From IMG/VR virus record IMGVR_UViG_3300032330_001252, positions 1 to 64,000 of that record: a stretch of DNA of 64,000 bases; one strand, written 5' to 3'. Source of the stretch: a virus (Duplodnaviria > Caudoviricetes). Of the stretch, positions 1 to 59,971 are shown one piece after another. The notes beneath the pieces are model-generated. The model saw nothing but the letters and a program-made list of their open reading frames with translations, was not told the DNA's origin and ran no database searches. Numbering within the stretch: the first letter of the stretch is position 1; each line of letters starts with the position of its first letter. A program made the translations under genes and the position numbers.

Positions 1-192
1 GGAGTTTATGAGAAAAAAACTTATGTAAACAAGCGTGGCGAGCTGCCGGTGAAAAAATCCGAGCATATTGAACGCATTGCAGAGCTGTTGGACGTAAATT
101 CGGAAGTATTGGAAAGCTTGGAGAAGGTAAACAAGCAGGTACTTAAGTTAATTGAACTTAAATTGACCGAATCTGACCCTAAATCGGAATAA
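1..192 (+). CDS. A2-like DNA-binding protein, 3' part (5'-truncated by the window edge; not in the ORF track)
   Basis: Frame 1 reads GVYEKKTYVNKRGELPVKKSEHIERIAELLDVNSEVLESLEKVNKQVLKLIE...*. It aligns by eye with the C-terminal halves of the ORFs at 1089, 2134 and 6450 (VY..K..VKK...IA..L....SLEKAN). Confidence 0.8.
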   Translation, partial: GVYEKKTYVNKRGELPVKKSEHIERIAELLDVNSEVLESLEKVNKQVLKLIELKLTESDPKSE

Positions 193-220
193 TTTGACAT
201 AATTTCGCTTAAATAGACTT

Positions 221-255
221 AAGCCCCCTTAGTTTGACACTTTGGGGGCTTTTTT
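221..255 (+). terminator. Rho-independent terminator
   Basis: AAGCCCCC/GGGGGCTT stem followed by a T-run, just after the 1..192 ORF. Confidence 0.7.
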
Positions 256-305
256 GCGCGTGCGAACAATTGCTGCAGTTTAGGGTCAGAATCTAGAAAA
301 TCCAC

Positions 306-340
306 TTGACAAACTAGGTCCAGCACTGGTAAAATGGCGC
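306..340 (+). promoter_or_regulatory. sigma70-like promoter with 18-bp spacer (repeat module copy 1)
   Basis: TTGACA 306-311, TAAAAT 330-335, then GGCGC. Confidence 0.55.
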
Positions 341-375
341 AGGCACGTCCAAATTTTTCATGGTGATTCGCACAG

Positions 376-417
376 ACAAAACAAAGCCCCTGCGCACACA
401 TAGGTGGAGGGGCTTTG
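376..417 (-). terminator. Rho-independent terminator ending the leftward non-coding transcript
   Basis: CAAAGCCCCT/AGGGGCTTTG 10-bp stem, followed by UUUUGU on the minus strand. Confidence 0.7.
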
Positions 418-684
418 AACTGCGCTAGTTTTTTGCTCTAACAGGATTTATAGAACTACCAAACCTGACCCTAAACCGTCACAAGCCTTAGCCAGGTAGT
501 TAATCTGGAGTCTGCTATCGAGTAGGGGAGACTAATAGGTTGTCGCATTTGCTAGCGGTTTAATGCAGTTGTCTCTGGTTGGATATATTTTTTGCACCCT
601 CCGCAACTTAGGGTCATGTTCGTGGGGTATAGGCGTGACACGGTGCCTTGAACTAATATAGATACAACCGCCGTTGCATCGTGG

Positions 685-777
685 TCCAGACCTCCAGGTG
701 TTGCTAGTGGATATTAATCGAACACTAGCACCGCGCTCCTGGAAGTTTCGCCCAACTTGCATGGGCTCATCAGTGGA
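685..777 (-). ncRNA. Type I hammerhead ribozyme
   Basis: Minus strand reads UCCA-CUGAUGA-GCCCA(UGCAAGU)UGGGC-GAAA-CUUCCAGG...CCUGGAGG-UC/UGGA. All core nucleotides and stems I, II and III are present, with a GUC cleavage triplet and predicted cut between 689 and 688. Confidence 0.85.
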
Positions 778-860
778 ATAGGGAGGCGACCGCTAGAGAC
801 TTCCTCGGTCATTAAGATGCTATCCCTTAGGCGGGACTCATATCACCAATTTATATAATA

Positions 861-889
861 ATTATACACTAAAAGTGGACAATAATCAA
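861..889 (-). promoter_or_regulatory. sigma70 promoter driving the hammerhead-containing RNA
   Basis: TTGATT-17bp-TATAAT on the minus strand. Confidence 0.75.
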
Positions 890-892
890 GTA

Positions 893-1027
893 AATAAAAA
901 CAGTCGTTGCAACTAGACTACCTTACGAAATGGACTTCTGGTTTTTGTCAAGGGTTGAGTAAGTGTTCTTGTGCGTGCGGGCGGCAGCTTGCGCTGTCAT
1001 TCATTAAGCCCTTCCCGACTGTTTATA
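893..1027 (-). ncRNA. Putative structured small RNA (~130 nt)
   Basis: Begins at the predicted +1 of the 1033-1061 promoter. Its 5' and 3' ends pair (AAACAGUCG/CGACUGUUU), it contains an internal CAGC-GCAA-GCUG GNRA hairpin, and it has no ORF. Confidence 0.5.
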
Positions 1028-1032
1028 GAATA

Positions 1033-1061
1033 ATTATACATGAAAAAGGGTCAGTAATCAA
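1033..1061 (-). promoter_or_regulatory. sigma70 promoter
   Basis: TTGATT-17bp-TATAAT; the spacer contains the CTGACCCT repeat. Confidence 0.75.
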
Positions 1062-1088
1062 GTGAAAATTTTCTGACCCTAAGTTCGA

Positions 1089-1397
1089 TCAACCACGCAG
1101 GTGTTGCAACAACACTTCCAAGACTTCGTGATTGGCTTTTTCCAAGCTGTCAAAGGTTTCAGGAGCAACGCCAATGCGGTTGGCAATTGCATCCACCAGC
1201 TCGGCTTTCTTAACACGAGCCACAGTGGTTTTGCTCTTGGCTTGGTACACGCCCTCACGGCTCAATTTTGCCACGATGCTTCGAGTAGATTTGCCCAGCT
1301 GGGTGGCCAGTGCTTCTACAGTTGCGCCCGCTTGGTAGCCGGCAACGAGAGCTGCGGTTTGCTCGGGGGTGTAGTTGGTTTTCGTAGCTTCAGTCAT
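1089..1397 (-). CDS. A2: T5 A2-like DNA-binding protein, paralog
   Basis: NYTPEQT..V..YQ.G..VE.LA..LGKS.RSIVAKLSREGVY resembles the A2 SVRSKL...AY motif; AAGGA RBS precedes the ATG at 1397. Confidence 0.7.
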   Translation of the reverse strand: MTEATKTNYTPEQTAALVAGYQAGATVEALATQLGKSTRSIVAKLSREGVYQAKSKTTVARVKKAELVDAIANRIGVAPETFDSLEKANHEVLEVLLQHLRG

Positions 1398-1438
1398 CAT
1401 ATGTCCTTTCAATTGGTTTCTGCGCTGTTTAAAGAATA

Positions 1439-1467
1439 ATTATACTGTTAAAATGGAACATCGTCAA
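1439..1467 (-). promoter_or_regulatory. sigma70 promoter for the A2-like gene
   Basis: TTGACG-17bp-TATAAT. Confidence 0.75.
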
Positions 1468-1582
1468 ATTCAAAAATTTCGCGGTGTGCGTTGGTATCTG
1501 CCAAAATTTCTGATACTTCTGCGTCCACAAATTCCGTGTACCAGGCTTCCTGGTCCATGCGGAAAAAATCATTGTCTGTCAT
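1448..1582 (-). CDS. 44-aa acidic peptide ending EFDDVPF (not in the ORF track)
   Basis: MTDNDFFRMDQEAWYTEFVDAEVSEILADTNAHREIFEFDDVPF*; GAAGGA RBS and its own promoter at 1610-1638. Confidence 0.75.
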   Translation of the reverse strand: MTDNDFFRMDQEAWYTEFVDAEVSEILADTNAHREIFEFDDVPF

Positions 1583-1609
1583 GTGCCATTCCTTCTAATC
1601 AATAAATAA

Positions 1610-1638
1610 ATTATACAGAATTCAAAAAACTTTTTCAA
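1610..1638 (-). promoter_or_regulatory. sigma70 promoter
   Basis: TTGAAA-17bp-TATAAT. Confidence 0.7.
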
Positions 1639-1686
1639 ATCCAAAATTTTGAATTTGCACTTGGTCTCACGCCCAGAAAAATTCAC

Positions 1687-1722
1687 TTGACACATATTGC
1701 TTTCGCACTGTATAATGGGCGC
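1687..1722 (+). promoter_or_regulatory. Antisense sigma70-like promoter with 18-bp spacer (copy 2)
   Basis: TTGACA 1687-1692, TATAAT 1711-1716, then GGGCGC. Confidence 0.6.
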
Positions 1723-1806
1723 GGCGGAACCCCCAAGATTTTGCACTTGTCAAGGTTTTCCACTGGCGCAGCCAAAATGGATGCGTTTTTGGTATGGTGG
1801 CACGCA

Positions 1807-1853
1807 AATAAGAATCATTCGCATTTGGTAGCGTAATGAGAATCGTTCTCATT
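1807..1853. promoter_or_regulatory. Two Fur-box-like palindromes
   Basis: AATAAGAATCATTCGCATT (1807-1825) and AATGAGAATCGTTCTCATT (1835-1853) match AATGATAATnATTATCATT at 14/18 and 15/18 positions. Confidence 0.5.
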
Positions 1854-1858
1854 TGGAG

Positions 1859-1921
1859 TTGGCACGGAAGTTGCTAATAGCAAGAATCATGCCAGGTGCC
1901 GTGGCGCAAGAATCGTGCCAA
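1859..1921. promoter_or_regulatory. Three sigma54 (-24/-12) consensus sites
   Basis: TTGGCACGGAAGTTGCT (+, 1859-1875), TGGCATGATTCTTGCT (-, 1879-1894) and TTGGCACGATTCTTGCG (-, 1905-1921); all have GG-N10-GC spacing. Confidence 0.6.
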
Positions 1922-1961
1922 CCTAGGTGTTGTTTTTTGCCAACATCAGGGAAAGTACCTA

Positions 1962-2027
1962 TTGACACGCTCCCAAAATTTATGTTATAATTTTGGCGCC
2001 AATAACCCTACTGGCGGTAGGGTTATT
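1962..2027 (+). promoter_or_regulatory. Antisense promoter module copy 3, plus hairpin
   Basis: TTGACA-18-TATAAT inside a CCAAAATT/AATTTTGG dyad, then GGCGCC and an AATAACCCTAC/GTAGGGTTATT hairpin. Confidence 0.65.
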
Positions 2028-2032
2028 AAGCG

Positions 2033-2057
2033 AAAAAAATCGGGCTTGCGCCCGATT
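2033..2057 (-). terminator. Rho-independent terminator
   Basis: AATCGGGC-GCAA-GCCCGATT followed by a U-run on the minus strand. Confidence 0.75.
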
Positions 2058-2058
2058 A

Positions 2059-2131
2059 AAAATGCCACGGGGATTTTAACCCCGATTCCCGATTATGTAA
2101 TCGGATATTAAATATTATATGATGGCATTTT
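2059..2131 (-). other. tRNA-shaped cloverleaf in a 3' UTR (not a canonical tRNA)
   Basis: 9-bp closing stem; arms of 4bp/8nt, 5bp/6nt and 5bp/7nt; 4-nt variable linker. Confidence 0.4.
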
Positions 2132-4651: not shown

Positions 4652-5128
4652 TTAATGCCCTTGTTTGCTTGGGACATATACGCCCCGAATATTAAAACGA
4701 TCACAAACCGCTTTCAAATAATTTACATTATCCTCATAAAATGTAAATTCAGCATCTTTGAAATTATTTAAATTAAAGAATTTAGTTAATCCATTAATTT
4801 TTAATGTACCGCCCGAAATAGAATCACCATCTTTGCGAGAAATAATATAATCGGGTTCGCCTAGAATATCATTAATAAATGTATAATCAGCGGTACGCAA
4901 AACACGGGCAGTAGCAATAATGACATAACAATTTTCATCTCGCAAATCTTTTTTATATTGTTCTGCAAGTGGCAATAATGAATCATCCATTGCCCTATAT
5001 TCATTTTCACGCCAATAACCCAAGTCGATACGCTCGCCATTGGAATCAATAATTGTGCGATAGCGATGCAAACTGCAAACGATTGTGCCGTCCATGTCAT
5101 AAATTGAAACCCTTGTAATTTTAGCCAT
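4652..5128 (-). CDS. HAD-superfamily phosphatase
   Basis: Motif I DMDGT, motif II ATAR, motif IV YEDN; AAGGAA RBS. Confidence 0.75.
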   Translation of the reverse strand: MAKITRVSIYDMDGTIVCSLHRYRTIIDSNGERIDLGYWRENEYRAMDDSLLPLAEQYKKDLRDENCYVIIATARVLRTADYTFINDILGEPDYIISRKDGDSISGGTLKINGLTKFFNLNNFKDAEFTFYEDNVNYLKAVCDRFNIRGVYVPSKQGH

Positions 5129-5929: not shown

Positions 5930-5999
5930 GTGTTTATTATATCAAATTTTCAGCAAAAAAGTCAAGTGTGTAAAAATACAACATAGGGATAAACACCTA

Positions 6000-6056
6000 T
6001 TGACACGCTCCCAATTATACAAGTATAATTGGCGCCTGTTGCGTTTTCGCAACAGT
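6000..6056 (+). promoter_or_regulatory. Antisense promoter module copy 8, plus hairpin
   Basis: TTGACA-18-TATAAT inside a CCAATTATAC/GTATAATTGG dyad, then GGCGCC and a CTGTTGCG/CGCAACAG hairpin. Confidence 0.7.
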
Positions 6057-6065
6057 CTTTTGTTT

Positions 6066-6398
6066 TCAATTTTTGTCAACGCCCTTGATATAAATATCCT
6101 GCAAATCAAAGTATTCATTCATTTTTATAGCCCATTTTTTAAAATGTTTTCCGTGAATTTCAGCTTTAGAATTTTCTTCTTGCCATGCGTGAATAAGCTC
6201 ATGCGCTAACAAGACCTCAAAAGACCTACCAGACTCCCGAGTGTAAATTGTAATCCTATGCTCTAGCAGTTTGCCAGTCTTATCGGAATAGTGGGGCAAA
6301 TAAAGCCCATCATAGTGTTTATTTTTGCGTGTGTTTATACGCACAACAACAGGCTTTTTCAAGCCCAAAAATTTAGTGAAATCATTTAGTGTTTGCAT
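6066..6398 (-). CDS. SprT-like zinc metallopeptidase, probably leaderless
   Basis: HELIH plus HGKHF; ATG 7 nt after an extended -10 (TGcTATAAT). Confidence 0.65.
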   Translation of the reverse strand: MQTLNDFTKFLGLKKPVVVRINTRKNKHYDGLYLPHYSDKTGKLLEHRITIYTRESGRSFEVLLAHELIHAWQEENSKAEIHGKHFKKWAIKMNEYFDLQDIYIKGVDKN

Positions 6399-6414
6399 GA
6401 GTGTATTATAGCAC

Positions 6415-6443
6415 AAAAAAGAGTAGGGGCATAAAGCCCCTAC
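6415..6443 (-). terminator. Rho-independent terminator
   Basis: GTAGGGGC/GCCCCTAC stem plus U-run after the A2-like gene. Confidence 0.75.
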
Positions 6444-6449
6444 AATCTA

Positions 6450-6773
6450 TCAGGCTTTTTCAGCCTTGATAAATTCTGCAATCTTAGCGAGTGCAGTCTT
6501 ATTCGCTTTGGTCAGCGAATCAGCATCAGCCTCAGTCAAGCCCAATGCTTGAGCGATGAAGTCTGCGAATTCATCCTTCTTCACAACAGCTTCACCAGTC
6601 TTAGTGGTGTAAGTCTTAGCTACATAAACTTTCTCACGCGAAAGTTTAGCAACAACAGAGCGAACAGATTTACCCAAAGCCTCAGCGATGGATTCAACAG
6701 TTCTGCCAGCTTGGTAGTCGGCAACCATGCGAGCAGTTTGCTCGGCAGTATAGTTTACAGTTTTTGCAGTCAT
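6450..6773 (-). CDS. A2: T5 A2-like DNA-binding protein, paralog
   Basis: Closely similar by eye to 2134..2460; AGGAG RBS. Confidence 0.7.
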   Translation of the reverse strand: MTAKTVNYTAEQTARMVADYQAGRTVESIAEALGKSVRSVVAKLSREKVYVAKTYTTKTGEAVVKKDEFADFIAQALGLTEADADSLTKANKTALAKIAEFIKAEKA

Positions 6774-6819
6774 TTAAAAATCTCCTGAAAGGTCAAGGGT
6801 TGAAAGAAAGGTTATTATA

Positions 6820-9395: not shown

Positions 9396-9836
9396 ATGAC
9401 AAAAGACCAATACTCACAAATACTTAAAGTTGCATTTGCATCTGAATTCGCTTTTTACTTAAAGTCTGCTAATTTTCACTGGAATGTAGAAGGTTCAGAC
9501 TTTTACGAGTTTCACTTACTATTTGAAAGAATCTATACTGAAGTGTATGGATCTATTGACACGTTTGCTGAAGAACTACGTGCCGCTCAAATTTACGCAC
9601 CTGCAAGTTTAACTCAAATGAACGAACTAAGTGAAGTAAAAGATGAAACCAATCAGCCAGACGCTCGCGGCATGGCTCAAGAATTGTTAATGGATTCTGA
9701 TATGATGGCTGAAATGTTCCGTATGGCATTTGATGCAGCCGAAGCTATGGGTGACCATGGTTTATCAAACTTCTTGGCAGATCGTCAAGATGCTCACAAA
9801 GCCCATTCATGGATGTTGCGCTCAACATTAAAATAA
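9396..9836 (+). CDS. dps: Dps (DNA-binding ferritin-like) protein
   Basis: NFHWNVEG...FHLLFE...D.FAE ferroxidase signature and HxWML C-terminus; AAGGA RBS before the ATG at 9396. Confidence 0.9.
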   Translation: MTKDQYSQILKVAFASEFAFYLKSANFHWNVEGSDFYEFHLLFERIYTEVYGSIDTFAEELRAAQIYAPASLTQMNELSEVKDETNQPDARGMAQELLMDSDMMAEMFRMAFDAAEAMGDHGLSNFLADRQDAHKAHSWMLRSTLK

Positions 9837-18176: not shown

Positions 18177-21100
18177 ATGGCAGGAAATACAGTAAATTTT
18201 ACGCTGAACTTAACCGATGAGGGCAGTATTGATGTTGTACAGGCAAAGGTAAGTAAGTTAAATAAAGACTTAACCATTACCGAAAGACTTGGTAAAACAG
18301 CAAGTGCAGCCTTTAAAGCTAGCGGTGAGAATCAAGCATATGGACAAGCCCGCGGAACTATGGGTGGAACAGGTGCAGGTGCAAGAGACTTTGCAAACGA
18401 GGCACAAGGCCTTGGTGGATTAGTTCGCCTATACGCTACTGTTGCAGCTAACATATTTGCAGCAAGTGCTGCATTTAATGCACTAAAAGATGCAATGGCT
18501 ACAACTAACATGATTGAGGGCTTAAACCAATTAGGTGCTCAAAGCGGTCAGTCACTAGGTACATTAGCCAAAAACTTTGCTGATGCTAGCGGTGGCGCTA
18601 TCAGTTTGCGTGATGCTATGCAAGCAACTGTTCAAGCTACAAGTGCAGGTTTATCAACCAAACAATTCTCACAATTAGGTGATGTAGCCAAGAAAGCTAG
18701 TTTAGCTCTTGGACGAGACATGGCAGATTCTGTTAGCCGTTTAACTCGTGGTATTACTAAACTAGAACCAGAACTATTAGATGAATTGGGTATCTTTACT
18801 AAAGTTGGTAAAGCTACTGAAGACTATGCAAGAAGCGTAGGTAAATCTGTTGACTCTTTAACAGATTTTGAAAAACGCCAAGCATTTGCTAATGCAGTAT
18901 TAAAAGAAGGTGCTGATAAATTTGGAAGCATTGACATTCCGGCTAATCCATACGATAAACTACTAGCTAGTTTAAAGAATTTAGCACAAACAGGCTTAGA
19001 AGTAGTTAATAATGTACTAGGTCCACTAATCGGTGCATTAAGTCAAAGCCCAGCAGCACTAACCACAGGTATTGCTGCACTAAGTGTTATGTTACTAAAA
19101 CAGGCACTACCAGCTATTGGCCAGTATCGCCAAGGATTAGTTGCTGCCGCTGAAACAGCTAAAAAAGCAGCAGAAATTCGTGCAGGTGAAGCAGGCAAAG
19201 CAGTTGAAGCAAGTGCTAGCGCACGTGAAGCCGCACTAGATAAAGCTGCAGAAGCAGAATTACGAACTGTTAAAGCCGCTGCACAAAAAATTGAAGAAGT
19301 AAGGACAAGTGGTTTTGGTAAGCAATCTAAAGCTGCAGAAATTCTTAAAAAGAATACTCAAGATGTTACGCAAGCTGAACTTGATTATCTAACTAAAGTA
19401 GGAGAAAGATATAAAAAGCAAGGCAAAGATGATATTGCAGACCGTTACTTTAATGCCGTAACAGCAATTAAATCAAGTGCCAAAGCTGAAGCAGAGTATC
19501 AAACTGTTGTAGATGCTACAACAAAGAAACTAACAACACAGCAAGGTGCTTGGACAGCCCTTGGTCAAGCTCAAGCTCAAGCTAAACGTACTGCAGATAT
19601 TGCTACTTCTAAGTCAATAACAAGTAATGCTGCAGAAAATACTGCTATTTTAGGCATGAGTGGTGCTTGGTCAGAAATGCGTAAACAAGTTGGTGAATCC
19701 CAGATGGGGCCAATTCGTAAAGCATTTACAACTGTGTCCAGCGCAATTAGTATTGCTTCAACAGCTCTTATGGGGTTTGTTGGTGCTTTACAAACTTATA
19801 TATTTATTATTGGTGCAGTTATTGCAGGTGCTAGACTACTAGACTCTTACTTAACTAAAAATGCAGAACAGTCAGAAGCATTTAAACTAGCATTAGATAA
19901 TTCAAATGAATCTGTAAAGAATTATGACAGAACATTAAAAGCTCTAAGTAAGATGGATTCTAGTGCTGTATTTAGTGCAGCAGGTGTAACTGCCCAAGCA
20001 AATGCTTTTAAAGAGCTAAGTGATAATCTTGGTACATTACGCGAAAAGTTTGAAGAATTAGATAAAGCAACCACAGGTTGGGATAGATTCTGGGATGGAA
20101 TTTTTAGTAAGAGTCAAGGACAAAAATTTGCGGAAGCAAGTGTGTCTAATATTACTAAGTTAATTGCTGGTATTGACAATCCAGATGTTCGTGCACAAAT
20201 GACTGCTAAAGTTGATGAAGTACTTGGTACAACAGGTGGTAGTCAACTACAATGGCTGGAAGCTCTTAAAAAGGGTGGACCAGAAGCTGCTGCTGCAGTA
20301 AAACAAATTGAAGATAAGATTAAACCGCTCGCCACAGGCATGAGTATAACTGCTAGCCGTAGTAAAGAGTTTGACGATCAACTTAAAAAATTAACGGATT
20401 CTTACAAAGAATTTGCATTTTCAGCTATTGATAAATCACCTATGAGTAAACTAGGTGATGATATGTTGTTATTTTCCACAAAAACAGTAGGAGCACTAGC
20501 AGATACAGAAGCCGGCCTTGGTAGTATGAATAAGTTACTACAAGATGCTACAAAACTTGGCATGTTCAGTCCAGATGTTTTTGCACAAATGCAAAAAATG
20601 AGAACTGAAGTAGAAGGACTAAACAAACAACACGGCGATACTGCTATTAAACTAAAAATAGCTAGACAAGAGGTTAGTTCATTAGAACTAGAGTACGAAA
20701 GATTAAACAAAGCTTACGGTGGTTTAAGTGAAGATCAAATTCAATCTTTACGAAATGAGGGTGCTGACACTTCTGGTATTGATCAGATGCAGGCAGCTCA
20801 AGAAAAACTTAATAGTAAGTTAGCTTACATATCTGAATTAAATCGCAAAGATACAGAAGAAAGACGAAAAATTGCTGAATTAATGGCTAGTCCAGTATTC
20901 AAAGAAATGGCTGTTGAGTCTTTTAAAATCGGTGCTGATCTAATTAGTAAAAGTATAGATTTTGCATTTCAAAAAGCTAGTATTGACCTAAAGCGAGGTA
21001 TTCTTGGTAATTTAAGTGATTTACCAGGTTCTGGTGCTTTACAGCGAGAAGTAGACAAACAAGATATAGGTATTCAACGTTCTCAATTAGAGATGCAAGC

Positions 21101-23335: not shown

Positions 23336-23865
23336 GTAGATTAACATCAATGAGCCCAGAAGCTATCCGTGCGGTTTTTTCGCCAGACATGGATAGTGAT
23401 CTAATATTTTTACTAACAATGTATGATCCTACCACAGGTGGTGTAGCTGCCCGTTTAGCCGATAACTTTACACAAAGACTTACAACAGCGCCTTATGCCG
23501 AAACACCTACTGAAGTATACTATGGTGTAGTAAGCAGAGGCGAACAGTTTTTATTCCTACCTATGGACCTAAGTCTGCCCAGTGAAGAAGAAGCACAAGC
23601 GCCTCGCTGCTCACTAACTTTACGAGATGTAACTAGGTATGTTACACCTATTATACGTAGTATTAGTGGGCCGCCAAAAGTAAAAATGGAGTTAGTGTTA
23701 TCAAAAACTCCAGATATTGTAGAAGCTAGTTTTGTAGGTTTTTATATTAATAGTTTTACATATAATGCTGATTCAGTGACTGCTGAATTATCTATGATTG
23801 ATTATGAGCGTGAACCATTTCCAATGCACGCATTTACAGCTCCATATTTTCCAGGATTATTCTAA
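23332..23865 (+). CDS. Tail tip protein (DUF1833 / gpL-like)
   Basis: F.FLP.DLSLP...APR..LT.; C-terminal EPFP...TA.YFPGLF. Confidence 0.7.
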   Translation: MSRLTSMSPEAIRAVFSPDMDSDLIFLLTMYDPTTGGVAARLADNFTQRLTTAPYAETPTEVYYGVVSRGEQFLFLPMDLSLPSEEEAQAPRCSLTLRDVTRYVTPIIRSISGPPKVKMELVLSKTPDIVEASFVGFYINSFTYNADSVTAELSMIDYEREPFPMHAFTAPYFPGLF

Positions 23866-26800
23866 TGTGGCATAATAAATACGTGGGTATTCCCTATAAA
23901 GAAAAAGGCAGAAATCTTGACGGCGTTGATTGCTGGGGATTGCTGCGTCTAGTATATTCTGAAGAATTCAAAATTAATTTACCAAGTTTTGTAACAGACT
24001 ATGCAGAAAATGATACTTTACGTATTCAAGAACTAATTGCACAATATAAAGAGGGTTGGACACAATTAGAAGAACCTGAAGAAGGGTGTACTGTACTATT
24101 TAAAGTACTTGGTACCGAATCTCACGTTGGTATTGCAGTTAGTAACACTCACTTCTTGCATGCGCGAGAAGGACAGTACTCGGCAATTGAAAGCTTCGAT
24201 TCCCGCGCTTGGAAAAATCGTATTGTTGGATATTTTAAATACACAGAAAAAAGTTCAGCAGTATTAAATCTAGTACCACATCCCTTACGCACACAAAGAT
24301 TTACTGTTGCAGTTGAGCCAGGTACTAAACTAGAAGAATTAGTACCTTGGGTTGCCAAAGAATATTCTATTCCTCAAGAGTTACGTTCACGAATTATAAT
24401 TGTACTTAATGGTCGAGTTACTGACCCTGGTGAGTGGTCTGTAACTACATTAAAAGATACTGATCAGATTGAGTATAGAGCCGTACCAGCAGGTGGCGGC
24501 GGTGGTATTTTTAGAATGATTGCAATGATTGCAATTGCAATTGCTGCTCCTTATGCTGTTGCATATATGGCTGGAGCAACGTCAGCAGCTATTGCAGCTA
24601 GTGGAGCACTAGTAGCTAGTGGGATGGGTGCAGTTGCCTTTACTGCCGCAACTATGGCAGTTAGTTTAGTTGGCTCAATGCTAATTAATGCTATTGCACC
24701 TATTCGTCCACCTTCAGCACCAAGTGATCCTGGTAGTAGTGAGCGCCAGTTGATGGTTACAGGTGCAGCCAATCAAGCTAATAAGTATGGAGCAATACCC
24801 GTTATTTTAGGGAAAGTAAAAATTACTCCTCCTCTTGGTGCTCAAAATTATATTAGTTATGAGAATGACCGTGATACATATTTAACTATGTTATTGGTAT
24901 GGGGCTATGGTCCTTTGGTAATAGACCCTGCAACTATTAAAATTGGAGAAGTTGCAATATCTAACTACACTCTATCAAAATTTACTGATGGAACAGATAA
25001 ACTAATAACACTAGATCATAGAACTACTCCTACTACAGCAGAACTAACAAAATTTAATTCTATTTATGGCAGCGACGTTTATCAAGTAAACAAGAATCTT
25101 ACACTAGTATGTGATGGTAATCCAGAAGGTTCAACAGTAACTACCTCAGCAGTGGATAGTGAAGATGTGCCAATTACAACAACTACATTCCCTACTCCTG
25201 GACCTTATTCTGAAGCGGCAAGTTCTACTGCTGTAGATAAGGTAACTGTAGCTATTCATTTTCCACAAGGATTAAGAAAAGTAAAAGCAAGAGGTGATGG
25301 TGCTGGTGATAGCTCAGCAACATCTGTTACACTTAATTATGAAGTTAAGGTTGGTAGTGGTGCTTGGACTCCTTGGAAAAGAGTTGTATATGGTACAGAT
25401 GCTGCTAAAAAAGATGCATTTACTATTACTGAAACTTATGACATAGGCAGTACTCAATTACTGCAAGTAAGAGTTAGACGAGAAACTGGAGATAACACAG
25501 AAGATAATCCAGATTGGAGATATGCTTTTGAAACAGTATTTTTAAGTGCTACATTTATTAGTAATACTAGTCCAGCTGTAGATCCTAAAAACTGTGCTAT
25601 TGCTAAGACAGCTATTCAGGTTAAAGCCAACGAACAACTAAGTAATAGTATTGAGGGTATAAATGCTATTGTTCAAACTTATGCTTTAAGTTGGAATGGT
25701 ACAGCTTGGGTAATGGCAGGTACAAGTAATCCAGCCGACTTATTTAGATATGTGTTACAACATCCAGGTAATCCACAAAGAATACTAGATAGTGAAGTTA
25801 GTGATAAAATTAATTTATTACAACTACAATACTGGCATGACTATTGTGTTACAAAAGGATTCACATTCAATCGTATTCAGTCAGAATCAAAAAGCGTCCT
25901 AGATACACTACGAGATATTTGTGCCGCAGGTAGAGCTAGTCCTGCATTAGTTGATGGAAAATGGACTGTTGTTATTGATGAACCAAAATCAAATATAGTA
26001 CAACATTTCAGTCAGCATAATAGTTGGGGATTTGAAGGAACTAGAGCCTTACCTAGATTACCTGATGCATTACGTGTTATATACTATGATGAAGATCAAG
26101 ATTACCAAGAGGCCGAAATAATTGTATATGCTTCAGAAAAGTCGCAAGCTAATGCAGAATTATTTGAAAGTATTCAGTTACCTGGAGTAACAAAAAGTAC
26201 TTTAGTAATAGATCATGCTAGATGGCATATGGCACAAGCTCAACTTCGTCGTGAAAGTTATACACTAAGTACAGATATTGAGTACATTGTTGCCAATCGA
26301 GGTGACAGAGTAAAAGTAACTCACGATGTACCAATGTGGGGTTTGGGTAGCGGTAGAATAAAAAATAAGCTAACTAGTACTATTTTTGAACTAGATGAGT
26401 TAGTTCCTATTGATGATGCCTCTAGTCATACAATAAGAATTAGAAGTAGTACTGGTGCTAGTACTGAAAGAACTATCAAACAACAGTTTATTATCAGCTC
26501 AGTAAACAGGGCTAATAATTTAGTTACAGTTACATTAAATGATGTACATCCATTAAGTATTGGCGACTCTGTGTATGTAACTACACCAGTACCAACTATT
26601 GGCAGTCCTACGGCTGTTGTTACAGCCGTAACAACCAATTCTTTTAGCTATATTTCAATCGGAGGTAGTGTAAGTACTACTTCTACTAGTGGAACAGTAG
26701 TATTAAATGATGGGTACTACAGTAAAGTTCAAGTAACTGTAAGTACTACTGCTAGTGAGGCTAATAGTGGCGATCTTTTCTTATTTGGAAAATATCAGCA

Positions 26801-27662
26801 AGAGTCTCAAGATTTAATTATTATGAATATTGAGCCTACGACTAATAAGACAGCCAGAATTACTTTAGTAGATTATGGCGTAACTAGTAGCTATAATATA
26901 TTTACTGGATATTTAAATTTAACTGCTGCAACTGTATTTGAAACAAATATTACAAAAGCGCCTGAGTTTTTACAAAATGCTTTCGCAGACACAGATGTAC
27001 CCGCAGTTACTAATATTCAAAGTGATGATTTAGTAGCGGAAATTATTAGTCCTGGTACTTACTCTTATAGAATACGAGTAAGTTATGCTAATAGTAGTCA
27101 ATTACCCCCAACTGTCCAAAGTGTAGAATGTCAATACGACCTATCTACTTCTACTAATTCAAGTAATTATAGAACAGTAGTAGTTCCTTTCTTATCTAAT
27201 ACTGTAAATATACCAAATGTATTAGTTGATGAGATTTATAAACTACGTTTGAGATACGTAAGTTCTGATGGTAGAGTTGGTGTCTGGAGTGCTTGGTACA
27301 CTCATAGTGTATCTGGCAAACAATTTAATTACAATAATGTAGATAGCGTTATTGTAAAAAGAGTTGGAAGATTTATTAGTGTTACTCCAAGCATGACCGT
27401 ATTACCAGAAGATTTCAAATTTTACGAAGTTAGAGTGTTTAAAGATGCTGGAACTGGTGATTTTTGGAATAGTACTGACACTAATATTATAAAAACCAAA
27501 ACAACAAGTACAGCTAATATTGATATTAAACAATTTCCTGTACATAGAATAAGTGCCGCAGGTGTTAAATATAGGGTAGCAGTACGTACAGTAAATACTG
27601 TAGGTAATTATTCTACTACTAGTTTGCTTGGCGAAATAACTTTAACAACCATAGCACCTTAA
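23865..27662 (+). CDS. Fused NlpC/P60 (gpK-like) + gpI-like + gpJ-like baseplate hub/central tail tip protein
   Basis: GVDCWGL...SHVGI catalytic Cys/His; GGGGG..R.IA linker; YG.IPVILG and NPA..RYVL J-type motifs; C-terminal FnIII-like segments. Confidence 0.8.
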   Translation: MWHNKYVGIPYKEKGRNLDGVDCWGLLRLVYSEEFKINLPSFVTDYAENDTLRIQELIAQYKEGWTQLEEPEEGCTVLFKVLGTESHVGIAVSNTHFLHAREGQYSAIESFDSRAWKNRIVGYFKYTEKSSAVLNLVPHPLRTQRFTVAVEPGTKLEELVPWVAKEYSIPQELRSRIIIVLNGRVTDPGEWSVTTLKDTDQIEYRAVPAGGGGGIFRMIAMIAIAIAAPYAVAYMAGATSAAIAASGALVASGMGAVAFTAATMAVSLVGSMLINAIAPIRPPSAPSDPGSSERQLMVTGAANQANKYGAIPVILGKVKITPPLGAQNYISYENDRDTYLTMLLVWGYGPLVIDPATIKIGEVAISNYTLSKFTDGTDKLITLDHRTTPTTAELTKFNSIYGSDVYQVNKNLTLVCDGNPEGSTVTTSAVDSEDVPITTTTFPTPGPYSEAASSTAVDKVTVAIHFPQGLRKVKARGDGAGDSSATSVTLNYEVKVGSGAWTPWKRVVYGTDAAKKDAFTITETYDIGSTQLLQVRVRRETGDNTEDNPDWRYAFETVFLSATFISNTSPAVDPKNCAIAKTAIQVKANEQLSNSIEGINAIVQTYALSWNGTAWVMAGTSNPADLFRYVLQHPGNPQRILDSEVSDKINLLQLQYWHDYCVTKGFTFNRIQSESKSVLDTLRDICAAGRASPALVDGKWTVVIDEPKSNIVQHFSQHNSWGFEGTRALPRLPDALRVIYYDEDQDYQEAEIIVYASEKSQANAELFESIQLPGVTKSTLVIDHARWHMAQAQLRRESYTLSTDIEYIVANRGDRVKVTHDVPMWGLGSGRIKNKLTSTIFELDELVPIDDASSHTIRIRSSTGASTERTIKQQFIISSVNRANNLVTVTLNDVHPLSIGDSVYVTTPVPTIGSPTAVVTAVTTNSFSYISIGGSVSTTSTSGTVVLNDGYYSKVQVTVSTTASEANSGDLFLFGKYQQESQDLIIMNIEPTTNKTARITLVDYGVTSSYNIFTGYLNLTAATVFETNITKAPEFLQNAFADTDVPAVTNIQSDDLVAEIISPGTYSYRIRVSYANSSQLPPTVQSVECQYDLSTSTNSSNYRTVVVPFLSNTVNIPNVLVDEIYKLRLRYVSSDGRVGVWSAWYTHSVSGKQFNYNNVDSVIVKRVGRFISVTPSMTVLPEDFKFYEVRVFKDAGTGDFWNSTDTNIIKTKTTSTANIDIKQFPVHRISAAGVKYRVAVRTVNTVGNYSTTSLLGEITLTTIAP

Positions 27663-59653: not shown

Positions 59654-59971
59654 TTAGGTTTTTGCTTTTGGATTTACAATAACTGGAGCTTCTGTAGCGG
59701 CTACTGTATCTTCTACAACTACTTCTTGTGTTACTGGAATAGCTTCTGGAACAGGAGTAACTACAGCTTCGGCTTCAGTAGCAATTTCTGTGCCACGAAA
59801 TTCAAGTGTGCAATTAGGGTCAACGCGAACTGTAACAGTACCACTACCAACAACAGTTAAACTTGAACGCTCATGATCGCTAAAGTAGTCACCTACTTTT
59901 AGCTCATACATACTGCCAGTTTCACGAACAATAGTAGCTACTACTGAACCGTTAATTTCTTCTAAAATCAT
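59654..59971 (-). CDS. Hypothetical protein
   Basis: GAGG RBS; fills the gap between D13 and D14. Confidence 0.55.
   Translation of the reverse strand: MILEEINGSVVATIVRETGSMYELKVGDYFSDHERSSLTVVGSGTVTVRVDPNCTLEFRGTEIATEAEAVVTPVPEAIPVTQEVVVEDTVAATEAPVIVNPKAKT

Follow-up and report, generated by a model that had tools for sequence, protein, structure and literature searches.

Why would a phage place two consensus-like boxes for a host iron regulator and three exact host sigma-54 sites within 115 bp of DNA that encodes nothing? The question is posed by positions 1807 to 1921 of IMG/VR virus record IMGVR_UViG_3300032330_001252, an 82-kb contig (record 78% complete) whose first 64 kb, hereafter the window, we analyzed. 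An earlier note, made from the letters alone, had described the array as two 19-bp Fur-like palindromes with starts 28 bp apart, followed by three sigma-54 sites, the first two facing each other with 3 bp between their -12 elements. This description was borne out, all three sigma-54 sites being exact, and both sequence and comparison lend support to the suggestion that host Fur and sigma-54 are what the sites attract. We tentatively favor the view that host proteins would land on the 115 bp as DNA and form a non-transcribing barrier or gate there. It appears to be this phage's version of Repeat Region 3, the injection stop region of phage T5, homologous to it in kind and position.

The sigma-54 identity of the three -24/-12 elements was assessed with the search core TGGCAYG-N4-TTGC. 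Zero-mismatch cores in the window number three, all of them within the array, where base composition predicts 0.03 in 64 kb; three would fall inside 100 bp by chance with a probability of about 3e-11. One-mismatch matches elsewhere in the window lie at 25833 (in the listed open reading frame [ORF] 23865-27662) and at 59781 (inside an ORF). The published sigma-54 consensus also includes a T before the core and an A or T after TTGC; the preceding letter is T or C in each of the three sites, and the following letter is T in two of them. Sites 1 and 2 meet as TTGCT-AAT-AGCAA, with 5 bp between their 15-mer cores.

This face-to-face pattern (5 bp between -12 elements) matched 34 viral contigs, where it often forms tandem arrays that reach about eight sites, against some 0.003 matches expected by our own estimate for a collection assumed to hold about 1e11 bases. 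Among 190 distinct in-array sites from unrelated viral contigs, a T precedes TGG in 106 and an A or T follows TTGC in 165, at flanking positions that the search did not impose. The choice of letter is much freer at the four spacer positions, none of which has a letter that exceeds about half, and imperfections fall chiefly at positions 7 and 12. Across 75 distinct facing pairs the complementarity of the spacers is 25%, which equals chance, the Y (C/T) position differs between the halves in 49, and the centers of facing half-sites are spaced 3 to 8 bp apart. These data fit independent half-sites read by a universal host factor and argue against a hairpin, of RNA or DNA, and a rigid dimeric binder. 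G+C content among the 35 array-bearing loci runs from 36 to 66%, and no protein family is common to their surroundings beyond one group of 10 to 12 related phages. TGCGCCA was not enriched.

The same survey bears on an alternative raised in the earlier note, that the whole array consists of copies of one phage-protein motif, AGAATCRT. Four copies do occur in the array, but the reading as a single phage motif fails: ATTC is not a fixed spacer, every spacer position varies in the survey, and we rejected the motif because unrelated phages vary the spacers yet keep the -24/-12 letters and spacing. This is the opposite of homologues that keep AGAATC alone.

Bacterial RpoN promoters resemble the window sites in their exact core and consensus flanks. 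The window array differs from them in lacking an activator gene, a recognizable enhancer or a directly downstream dependent gene, and in consisting of three overlapping sites, one facing another; in the bacterial order that was sampled, 401 genomes yielded no such facing layout. The sigma-54 arrays of other uncultured phages are alike in their near-perfect, mostly facing sites, in occupying gene-free DNA of an early region and in having no encoded activator; compared with these, the window array is small (three sites), tied to Fur boxes and placeable in the T5 family. One 335-kb jumbo-phage contig (L039, IMGVR_UViG_3300025121_000011) carries about 13 facing pairs, every 450 to 900 bp over 8.9 kb, as if one per gene boundary.

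The palindromes, which are direct repeats of each other as well, can be judged against bacterial operators. When the window is searched for the canonical Fur 19-mer AATGATAATNATTATCATT with three or fewer mismatches allowed (0.13 expected), box 2 alone is returned; it has three mismatches and box 1 four, and each box differs by one from the pattern AATGMGAATNATTCKCATT. Exact matches to AATGMGAATNATTCKCATT occur at at least 120 bacterial loci, and 60 of the 80 examined lie outside any ORF of 90 amino acids (aa) or more. Ten large ORFs picked from beside these matches comprised nine TonB-dependent receptors and feoB; a less selective ten comprised ZnuA-type and Fe3+-type binding proteins, two DUF6662 proteins, a BON-domain protein, a porin and four proteins without a Pfam match. 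At two or fewer mismatches a closely related pattern, AATGAKAATNATTMTCATT, has only 11 matches in the 4.64-Mb E. coli K-12 chromosome, and the five that were checked lie just upstream of gpmA, sufA, ryhB, fecI and fhuF, whose promoters are textbook Fur promoters. By sequence, then, the window palindromes are Fur boxes, of the same palindrome type as those of bacterial iron-uptake genes, and one pattern detects both. They differ from the bacterial boxes in standing in phage DNA, in tandem (28 bp) and beside sigma-54 elements, with no overlap of sigma-70 -10 or -35 elements.

About half of the 80 AATGMGAATNATTCKCATT matches listed are from Betaproteobacteria (Massilia, Janthinobacterium, Ralstonia, Undibacterium, Methylophilaceae and others), a class in which the pattern is strongly over-represented. 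This gives a weak hint that the host belongs to that group, weak because E. coli phages hold similar boxes; a comparison of the phage ribonucleotide reductase with five candidate host genomes returned nothing. Five betaproteobacterial genomes with the Fur-box variant all encode a Sigma54_DBD domain. Exact Fur boxes are also frequent in viral contigs (at least 120, loci L218-L336), some with three or four copies (L255, L286), and in L254 and L286 Fur, sigma-54 and DnaA boxes occur together.

Fur-type boxes and sigma-54 sites keep close company beyond the window. Within 792 kb of loci, many of them interrelated, 23 of 30 Fur-type boxes lie no more than 300 bp from an exact sigma-54 site, typically at 24 to 60 bp; among 119 viral contigs chosen regardless of sigma-54, 11 of 137 Fur boxes have a sigma-54 neighbor, against 1.5% of the DNA. 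The layout with Fur boxes 7 to 56 bp upstream of a plus-strand sigma-54 site is shared by the window, L246, L263, L286, L038 and L028, and the order of Fur box or boxes and then a plus-strand site recurs in the Vibrio phages KIT04, VCPH and X1. Across lineages the position of the Fur box is loose, either 7 to 56 bp upstream of the sigma-54 sites or 2 to 100 bp downstream of them.

Closer relatives were collected through the gene for a 107-aa helix-turn-helix (HTH) protein that neighbors the array, giving 56 related loci (L041-L096). An exact site that agrees with site 3 in place and orientation is present in 25 of these, directed at the HTH gene from about 480 bp upstream; about half of the 25 also have site 2, and a few have the facing site 1. 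Site 3 forms an island of conservation among 26 distinct sequences. Downstream of it the relatives carry swappable repeat cassettes (Fur-type palindromes, TTTGTGACT repeats or hairpins), past which come the conserved element at 1735-1770 and then the head-on promoter at 1687, which is kept in the relatives in reverse orientation. Genomes of this family hold one to three sigma-54 sites and zero to three Fur boxes.

The experimentally defined counterpart of the array is found in T5. Fur-type 19-mers with two or fewer mismatches occur in the T5 genome (AY587007.1; locus L337) solely within the terminal repeats, four in each (231, 9473, 9577 and 9612, plus the right-repeat copies), and a reversed-pattern control gave 0 matches. 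Three of the four, with two weaker copies at 9508 and 9531, make up an array at 9473-9630 that corresponds to the annotated "direct repeat C" and palindromes E, G and I of Repeat Region 3 (injection stop signal region). The shear point of first-step transfer has been estimated at about 9618 (Davison preprint 10.1101/866236), and the Fur-box array coincides with the first-step-transfer boundary (7.9%). By sequence, the "direct repeat C" copies and palindromes E, G and I (9473-9630 and 231-249) are near-consensus E. coli Fur boxes.

That preprint proposed DnaA boxes as a membrane anchor in the T5 stop region, deemed the function of the stop-region palindromes impossible to guess and mentioned neither Fur, iron, LexA nor sigma factors (10.1101/866236); a 2026 preprint describes the injection stop signal merely as repeats and palindromes. 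Our search found no literature linking Fur or sigma-54 to the region, older subscription papers lying outside that search, and the predicted Fur identity of the T5 palindromes is put forward here, being absent from the literature searched.

Like the window array, T5 Repeat Region 3 (AY587007.1, 9194-10409) is non-coding, rich in repeats and situated just beyond the small genes of the first-entering block, and both contain an array of Fur-type palindromes. The window region likewise lies between gene cassettes of a T5-like genome, and tandem palindromes of the AATGAGAATCATT type, that is, of T5 "direct repeat C" and palindromes E-I, are present in it. The two regions differ in that T5 has no sigma-54 site, and in that T5 has DnaA boxes, the LexA-like palindrome D and nine DRD repeats, of which the window has none. 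Terminal repeats and two-step transfer are features of T5, whereas the window phage is known from a linear fragment.

To place T5 among its relatives, we sampled eleven Demerecviridae records with consensus patterns (Fur-type 19-mers at two or fewer mismatches; about 0.1 exact sigma-54 sites expected per genome). T5 itself, HildyBeyeler (Bas33; E. coli), Eos (host not in the record) and RCIP0070 (Klebsiella) have no sigma-54 site. HildyBeyeler has six Fur-type boxes, five of them perfect within 570 bp; Eos has six, four of them clustered at 20233-20373; and RCIP0070 has five, three of them at a 35-bp period; the arrays of these three phages often show that period. The Vibrio phages carry both motifs: vB_ValS_X1 has seven Fur-type boxes and five sigma-54 sites, VCPH one and five, KIT04 two and three, and JSF10 one and one. 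D239, whose record names no host and which is counted here with the Vibrio phages, has one and five. Of the Aeromonas phages, Akh-2 has two Fur-type boxes and one sigma-54 site, and TS3 has none of either.

All exact sigma-54 sites of X1, VCPH, KIT04 and D239 fall in the pre-early end of the genome. KIT04 shows the T5 layout, with dmp, A1 and A2 leftward, small rightward genes and a non-coding gap at 5954-6814 (LC487410.1). The gap contains, in order, a Fur box, 22 bp, a plus-strand sigma-54 site, a LexA-like palindrome, a pair of DnaA boxes 3 bp apart, another DnaA box, a minus-strand sigma-54 site and tandem repeats. In X1 (repeat regions at 84751-86198 of MT442039.1) the equivalent gap holds two sigma-54 sites, a DnaA pair, a LexA-like palindrome and four Fur-type boxes, three of them at two or fewer mismatches and at a 35-bp period; a second X1 gap combines a facing sigma-54 pair with a DnaA box and Fur boxes. 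LexA-like palindromes (ACTGTAT-N4-ATACAGT) stand in the T5 repeat regions at 6136 and 9331 (palindrome D), and in the four other phages tested they are confined to the terminal part that holds the Fur and sigma-54 sites (X1, 85942; KIT04, 6240; HildyBeyeler, 98525 and 101996; VCPH, 117339 and 119953). In VCPH one such palindrome abuts a sigma-54 -24 element.

The Vibrio phages KIT04, X1, VCPH and D239 thus resemble the window in having a Fur box or boxes and then an exact sigma-54 site, in their facing pairs, and in the place of these sites after rightward pre-early genes with dmp nearby; KIT04 uses the exact 15-mer of window site 3. They differ in adding paired DnaA boxes, LexA-like palindromes and the A1 and A2 genes, whereas the window has Fur and sigma-54 sites only, together with three HTH paralogues. 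Consensus sites of global host DNA-binding proteins seem to be gathered in T5-type repeat regions, of which the 115 bp would be a compact one, with Fur and sigma-54 sites alone. The proposal in the earlier note that the array is a protein anchor for the injection pause gains comparative support here, as the T5 stop region and its homologues in cultured relatives appear to hold the same boxes.

The rest of the genome agrees with this placement. The predicted structural genes are siphovirus-like, and the fused protease/capsid protein is 35% identical to those of Vibrio, Aeromonas, Klebsiella and Escherichia Demerecviridae; on protein comparison, the window phage is a distant relative of T5. A probable tRNA cluster lies in the part of the contig past the window. 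Among the leftward small genes that adjoin the array is one homologous to dmp, which in T5 marks the pre-early set; the small and large terminase subunits follow these genes, as they do in Vibrio phage X1. Because of the dmp-like gene the small-gene block can be called pre-early-like, and with the terminase synteny this makes the "pre-early" framing of the earlier note a reasonable one. Its statement that the phage also encodes Dps rests on a truncated 63-aa C-terminal fragment at 1-192 with a weak Ferritin match (E 5e-4), below the Pfam cutoff. Features of the array and its surroundings are listed in Table 1.

Table 1. Features of the array and of the neighboring DNA (window coordinates)
Feature	Position	Strand	Remarks
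HTH DNA-binding protein, 107 aa	1089..1412	-	PHROG "transcriptional regulator, D5-like"
44-aa ORF	1448..1582	-	Downstream of sigma-54 sites 2 and 3; own sigma-70 promoter 1638-1610
Sigma-70 consensus promoter, TTGACA-18-TATAAT	1687..1716	+	12/12 match; start near 1723; reads into array
Conserved element, GCGCCAGTGG...CAAGTGCAAAA	1735..1770	-	1-3 copies in relatives
Orphan TGGCACG, -24-like	1797..1803	+	Without -12 partner
Fur-type palindrome 1 (predicted box), AATAAGAATCATTCGCATT	1807..1825	.	1 mismatch to AATGMGAATNATTCKCATT
Fur-type palindrome 2 (predicted box), AATGAGAATCGTTCTCATT	1835..1853	.	Half-site type as in T5 palindromes E, G, I
Sigma-54 site 1, TGGCACGGAAGTTGC	1860..1874	+	Exact; 7 bp past Fur box 2; faces site 2
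Sigma-54 site 2, TGGCATGATTCTTGC	1880..1894	-	Exact
Sigma-54 site 3, TGGCACGATTCTTGC, then GCC	1906..1920	-	Exact; most conserved element
Extended -10 sigma-70 consensus promoter, dyad over -10	1962..1991	+	Member of backward-facing promoter family at cassette boundaries
HTH paralogues, 107-108 aa	2134-2460, 6450-6773	-	45-56% identity to each other's relatives
dmp-like gene (T5 pre-early marker)	4652..5128	-	tblastn, Vibrio phage X1 dmp query: 27.5% identity, E 7e-8; PHROG HAD/kinase-like match

Gene-free DNA extends from 1687 to 1991, between two consensus sigma-70 promoters that both read rightward, and no strong intrinsic terminator was detected between promoter 1687 and the next cassette. 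These promoters belong to a plus-strand family (306, 1687, 1962, 2639, 3380, about 4568, about 6000 and about 6996) with an 18-bp spacer, a dyad over the -10 element and a GGCGC tail, several of them preceded by GTTGTTTTT. The family points backward into the 3' ends or terminator hairpins of leftward gene cassettes; in Vibrio phage X1, sigma-54 sites take similar backward positions at gene junctions.

Other features of this end of the contig can be noted briefly. Copies of TGACCCTAA, some in one orientation and some in the other, are repeated through the non-coding DNA to the left of the HTH gene (174, 280, 466, 608, 1074, 7144 and five more), and GGGACCCTAA also adjoins the sigma-54 arrays of the unrelated L010-group contigs. 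Among the 56 related contigs, at least 20 break off no more than 2.5 kb past the downstream end of the HTH gene, and so does the window contig (1088 bp). A genome terminus at this place was considered and rejected, as the related contigs stop at unrelated sequences, which suggests assembly breaks in a hypervariable region that is hard to assemble rather than a genome end; a paper on phage BF23 gives no consensus for the T5 nicks. Closely packed tRNA-like stretches with small ORFs between them were seen by eye on the minus strand at contig positions 79400-81700 (L097, 15400-17700), and one 74-aa protein among them is 35 to 41% identical to proteins of the L010-group contigs that carry sigma-54 arrays. 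Rfam and tRNA scans of the window found nothing, the DNA of 1400-2200 gave a single trivial 50-bp match to isolate phages, and the 107-aa HTH protein had no tblastn match among them.

How might such an array work? We suggest that it acts as DNA, not as a gene or an RNA, and offers near-consensus sites to host proteins. Fur and sigma-54, the latter free or as holoenzyme, would bind as the DNA enters the cell, and the sigma-54 polymerase would stay in a stable closed complex, without transcription. Without an activator a sigma-54 complex is closed and silent, and that state would be expected here because no activator is encoded and the three footprints overlap. The complex of Fur and sigma-54 could then form a stable block at the inner boundary of the pre-early-like genes, which are expressed first, between promoter 1687 and the next cassette, where it might gate DNA transfer, read-through from the strong promoter, or both. 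Its occupancy would vary with the state of the host, for example with iron via Fur. A barrier or gate is favored because lineages mix different host factors at one locus, because the geometry is loose and because the T5 array sits at the transfer boundary.

Several observations weigh against this landing-pad reading. Window positions 1-2100 contain no DnaA box (TTWTNCACA), and hence no pair 3 bp apart, and no LexA box was found anywhere in the record. With the X1 proteins as queries, no A1 or A2-like homologue was found in the 78%-complete record, and the contig is a linear fragment in which no end repeats were seen. In the family to which the window phage belongs, site 3 is invariant over its entire 18-mer, spacer included, so the family data alone cannot tell sigma-54 from another binder, and the conserved sites hold a fixed orientation toward the downstream genes. 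At L057, at L062-L065 and twice at L239, a Fur box begins 9 to 10 bp past the -12 element, which is classical promoter-operator geometry. Finally, there is no evident way for a cytoplasmic protein complex to halt DNA entry.

A bolder form of the same idea holds that the T5-type injection stop signal is itself a clamp of host proteins on the repeat region, which we regard as rather unlikely. Fur would load on consensus boxes as the repeat region enters, joined by sigma-54 polymerase, DnaA or LexA according to lineage; the nucleoprotein complex would pause transfer at the Fur-box array, which in T5 lies beside the 7.9% boundary; and the pause would be released by DNA-binding proteins of the pre-early set, namely A1/A2 and, in the window phage, perhaps the HTH paralogues. 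Such a pause could be tuned by the iron, damage and nutrient state of the host.

The main rival to the landing pad, possible but on balance unlikely, is a Fur-gated, enhancer-dependent sigma-54 promoter. A host activator would fire sites 2 and 3 leftward, and Fur bound at +16 to +62 would repress them in iron-replete cells. The transcript would either oppose promoter 1687, by interference or as antisense, or run toward the 44-aa ORF and the HTH regulator, and early regulation would read the iron and nutrient state of the host. The iron/nitrogen-state sensor gating pre-early transcription that the earlier note proposed is likewise a possible reading. The position and orientation of the site relative to downstream genes, kept in 25 of the 56 related loci, suit this explanation, as do the boxes that start just past the -12 GC, over the expected start point. 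One KIT04 sigma-54 site lies in the gap upstream of A2-A1-dmp, and a sigma-54 promoter has been reported for Pseudomonas phage YuA (PMC10914365), so a phage can use host sigma-54.

Against a promoter stand the lack of an activator gene (PF00158), as well as of Fur and sigma-54 genes, in the 82-kb, 78%-complete record, although a host activator may serve instead, and the conservation upstream of sites 2 and 3 of nothing but a backward sigma-70 promoter and a terminator hairpin, with no enhancer seen. The earlier note had stated that no ORF depends on the sites. There is indeed no conserved ORF within 290 nt downstream of them, but sites 2 and 3 do point to the 44-aa ORF and the HTH gene 290 to 480 bp away; these genes have consensus sigma-70 promoters of their own and lie behind the head-on consensus promoter. 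The overlap of three footprints, one site facing another 5 bp off, is also awkward for a promoter, the position of the Fur box varies widely between lineages, and the DnaA and LexA-type boxes clustered with these sites in relatives are unlike the logic of a single promoter.

Binding by phage-encoded proteins seems to us improbable. Candidate binders are the three HTH paralogues, a protein resembling A2, or an initiator of replication that recognizes origin iterons, and the likeness to host sites would be convergence or deliberate mimicry. The control region is rich in other repeats, relatives swapping TTTGTGACT iterons, hairpins and GCGCCAGTGG elements at the same place; site 3 is invariant throughout; and T5 A2 is a DNA-binding dimer needed for transfer to resume (Davison preprint 10.1101/866236). 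Both motifs, however, recur in unrelated contigs without a common nearby protein, they equal the host consensus even at positions that were not imposed, and they are working host motifs in bacteria. The variable center spacing of facing half-sites is unlike a rigid dimer. The L010-group loci and L031 have Fur-type boxes next to sigma-54 sites, yet no HTH homologue was found in them by tblastn with the window ORFs, whereas many relatives with the HTH gene have no Fur-type box; HTH proteins are disfavored as the binder because boxes occur without the gene and the gene without boxes.

The earlier note had also proposed a decoy, in which the array would soak up Fur and scarce sigma-54, de-repress iron uptake and silence sigma-54-dependent host responses; of this explanation, too, we are strongly doubtful. 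The sites are perfect consensus sites packed too densely for productive promoters, arrays in other viral contigs reach about eight sites, and a search of 406 betaproteobacterial genomes found no facing layout. The family, though, holds merely one to three sigma-54 sites and zero to three Fur boxes per genome, confined to first-entering repeat regions and neither spread nor amplified. A cell contains only a single copy at the pre-early stage, and at high copy number few host genes would be left to de-repress, T5-type phages degrading host DNA within minutes (2026 preprint). These two points, the inability of a single copy to titrate and the early loss of host DNA, are why the decoy is disfavored.

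Small-RNA hairpins transcribed from promoter 1687 or from the sigma-54 sites are scarcely credible: a consensus promoter does read into the region and on the minus strand 1790-1945 folds with much greater stability than its shuffles do (z = -5.5), but that stability arises because of the DNA palindromes, the complete plus-strand transcript shows no unusual stability (z = -1.1), no Rfam family matches, spacer complementarity is at chance with the Y positions tending to mismatch and no covariation in the pairs, the facing partner is absent from most relatives so that the hairpin is not conserved, and Fur palindromes with a 1-nt center suit a protein dimer and not an RNA loop.

The two-step injection of T5 DNA has been known for more than 50 years. 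The stop-region palindromes of T5, Bas33, Eos and a Klebsiella relative now appear as Fur-box arrays that match the best of the E. coli chromosome, and in Vibrio relatives and the window phage they are joined by perfect sigma-54 sites. The sigma-54 arrays of uncultured phages are thereby connected for the first time with phages in culture and with a locus defined by experiment; what is new here is the tie to Fur boxes, the placement in the Demerecviridae, the presence in cultured phages and the coincidence with the T5 stop region. These observations suggest that the DNA which phages deliver first may be furnished with binding sites for global regulators of the host, and they give a testable lead on how T5-like phages pause DNA entry.

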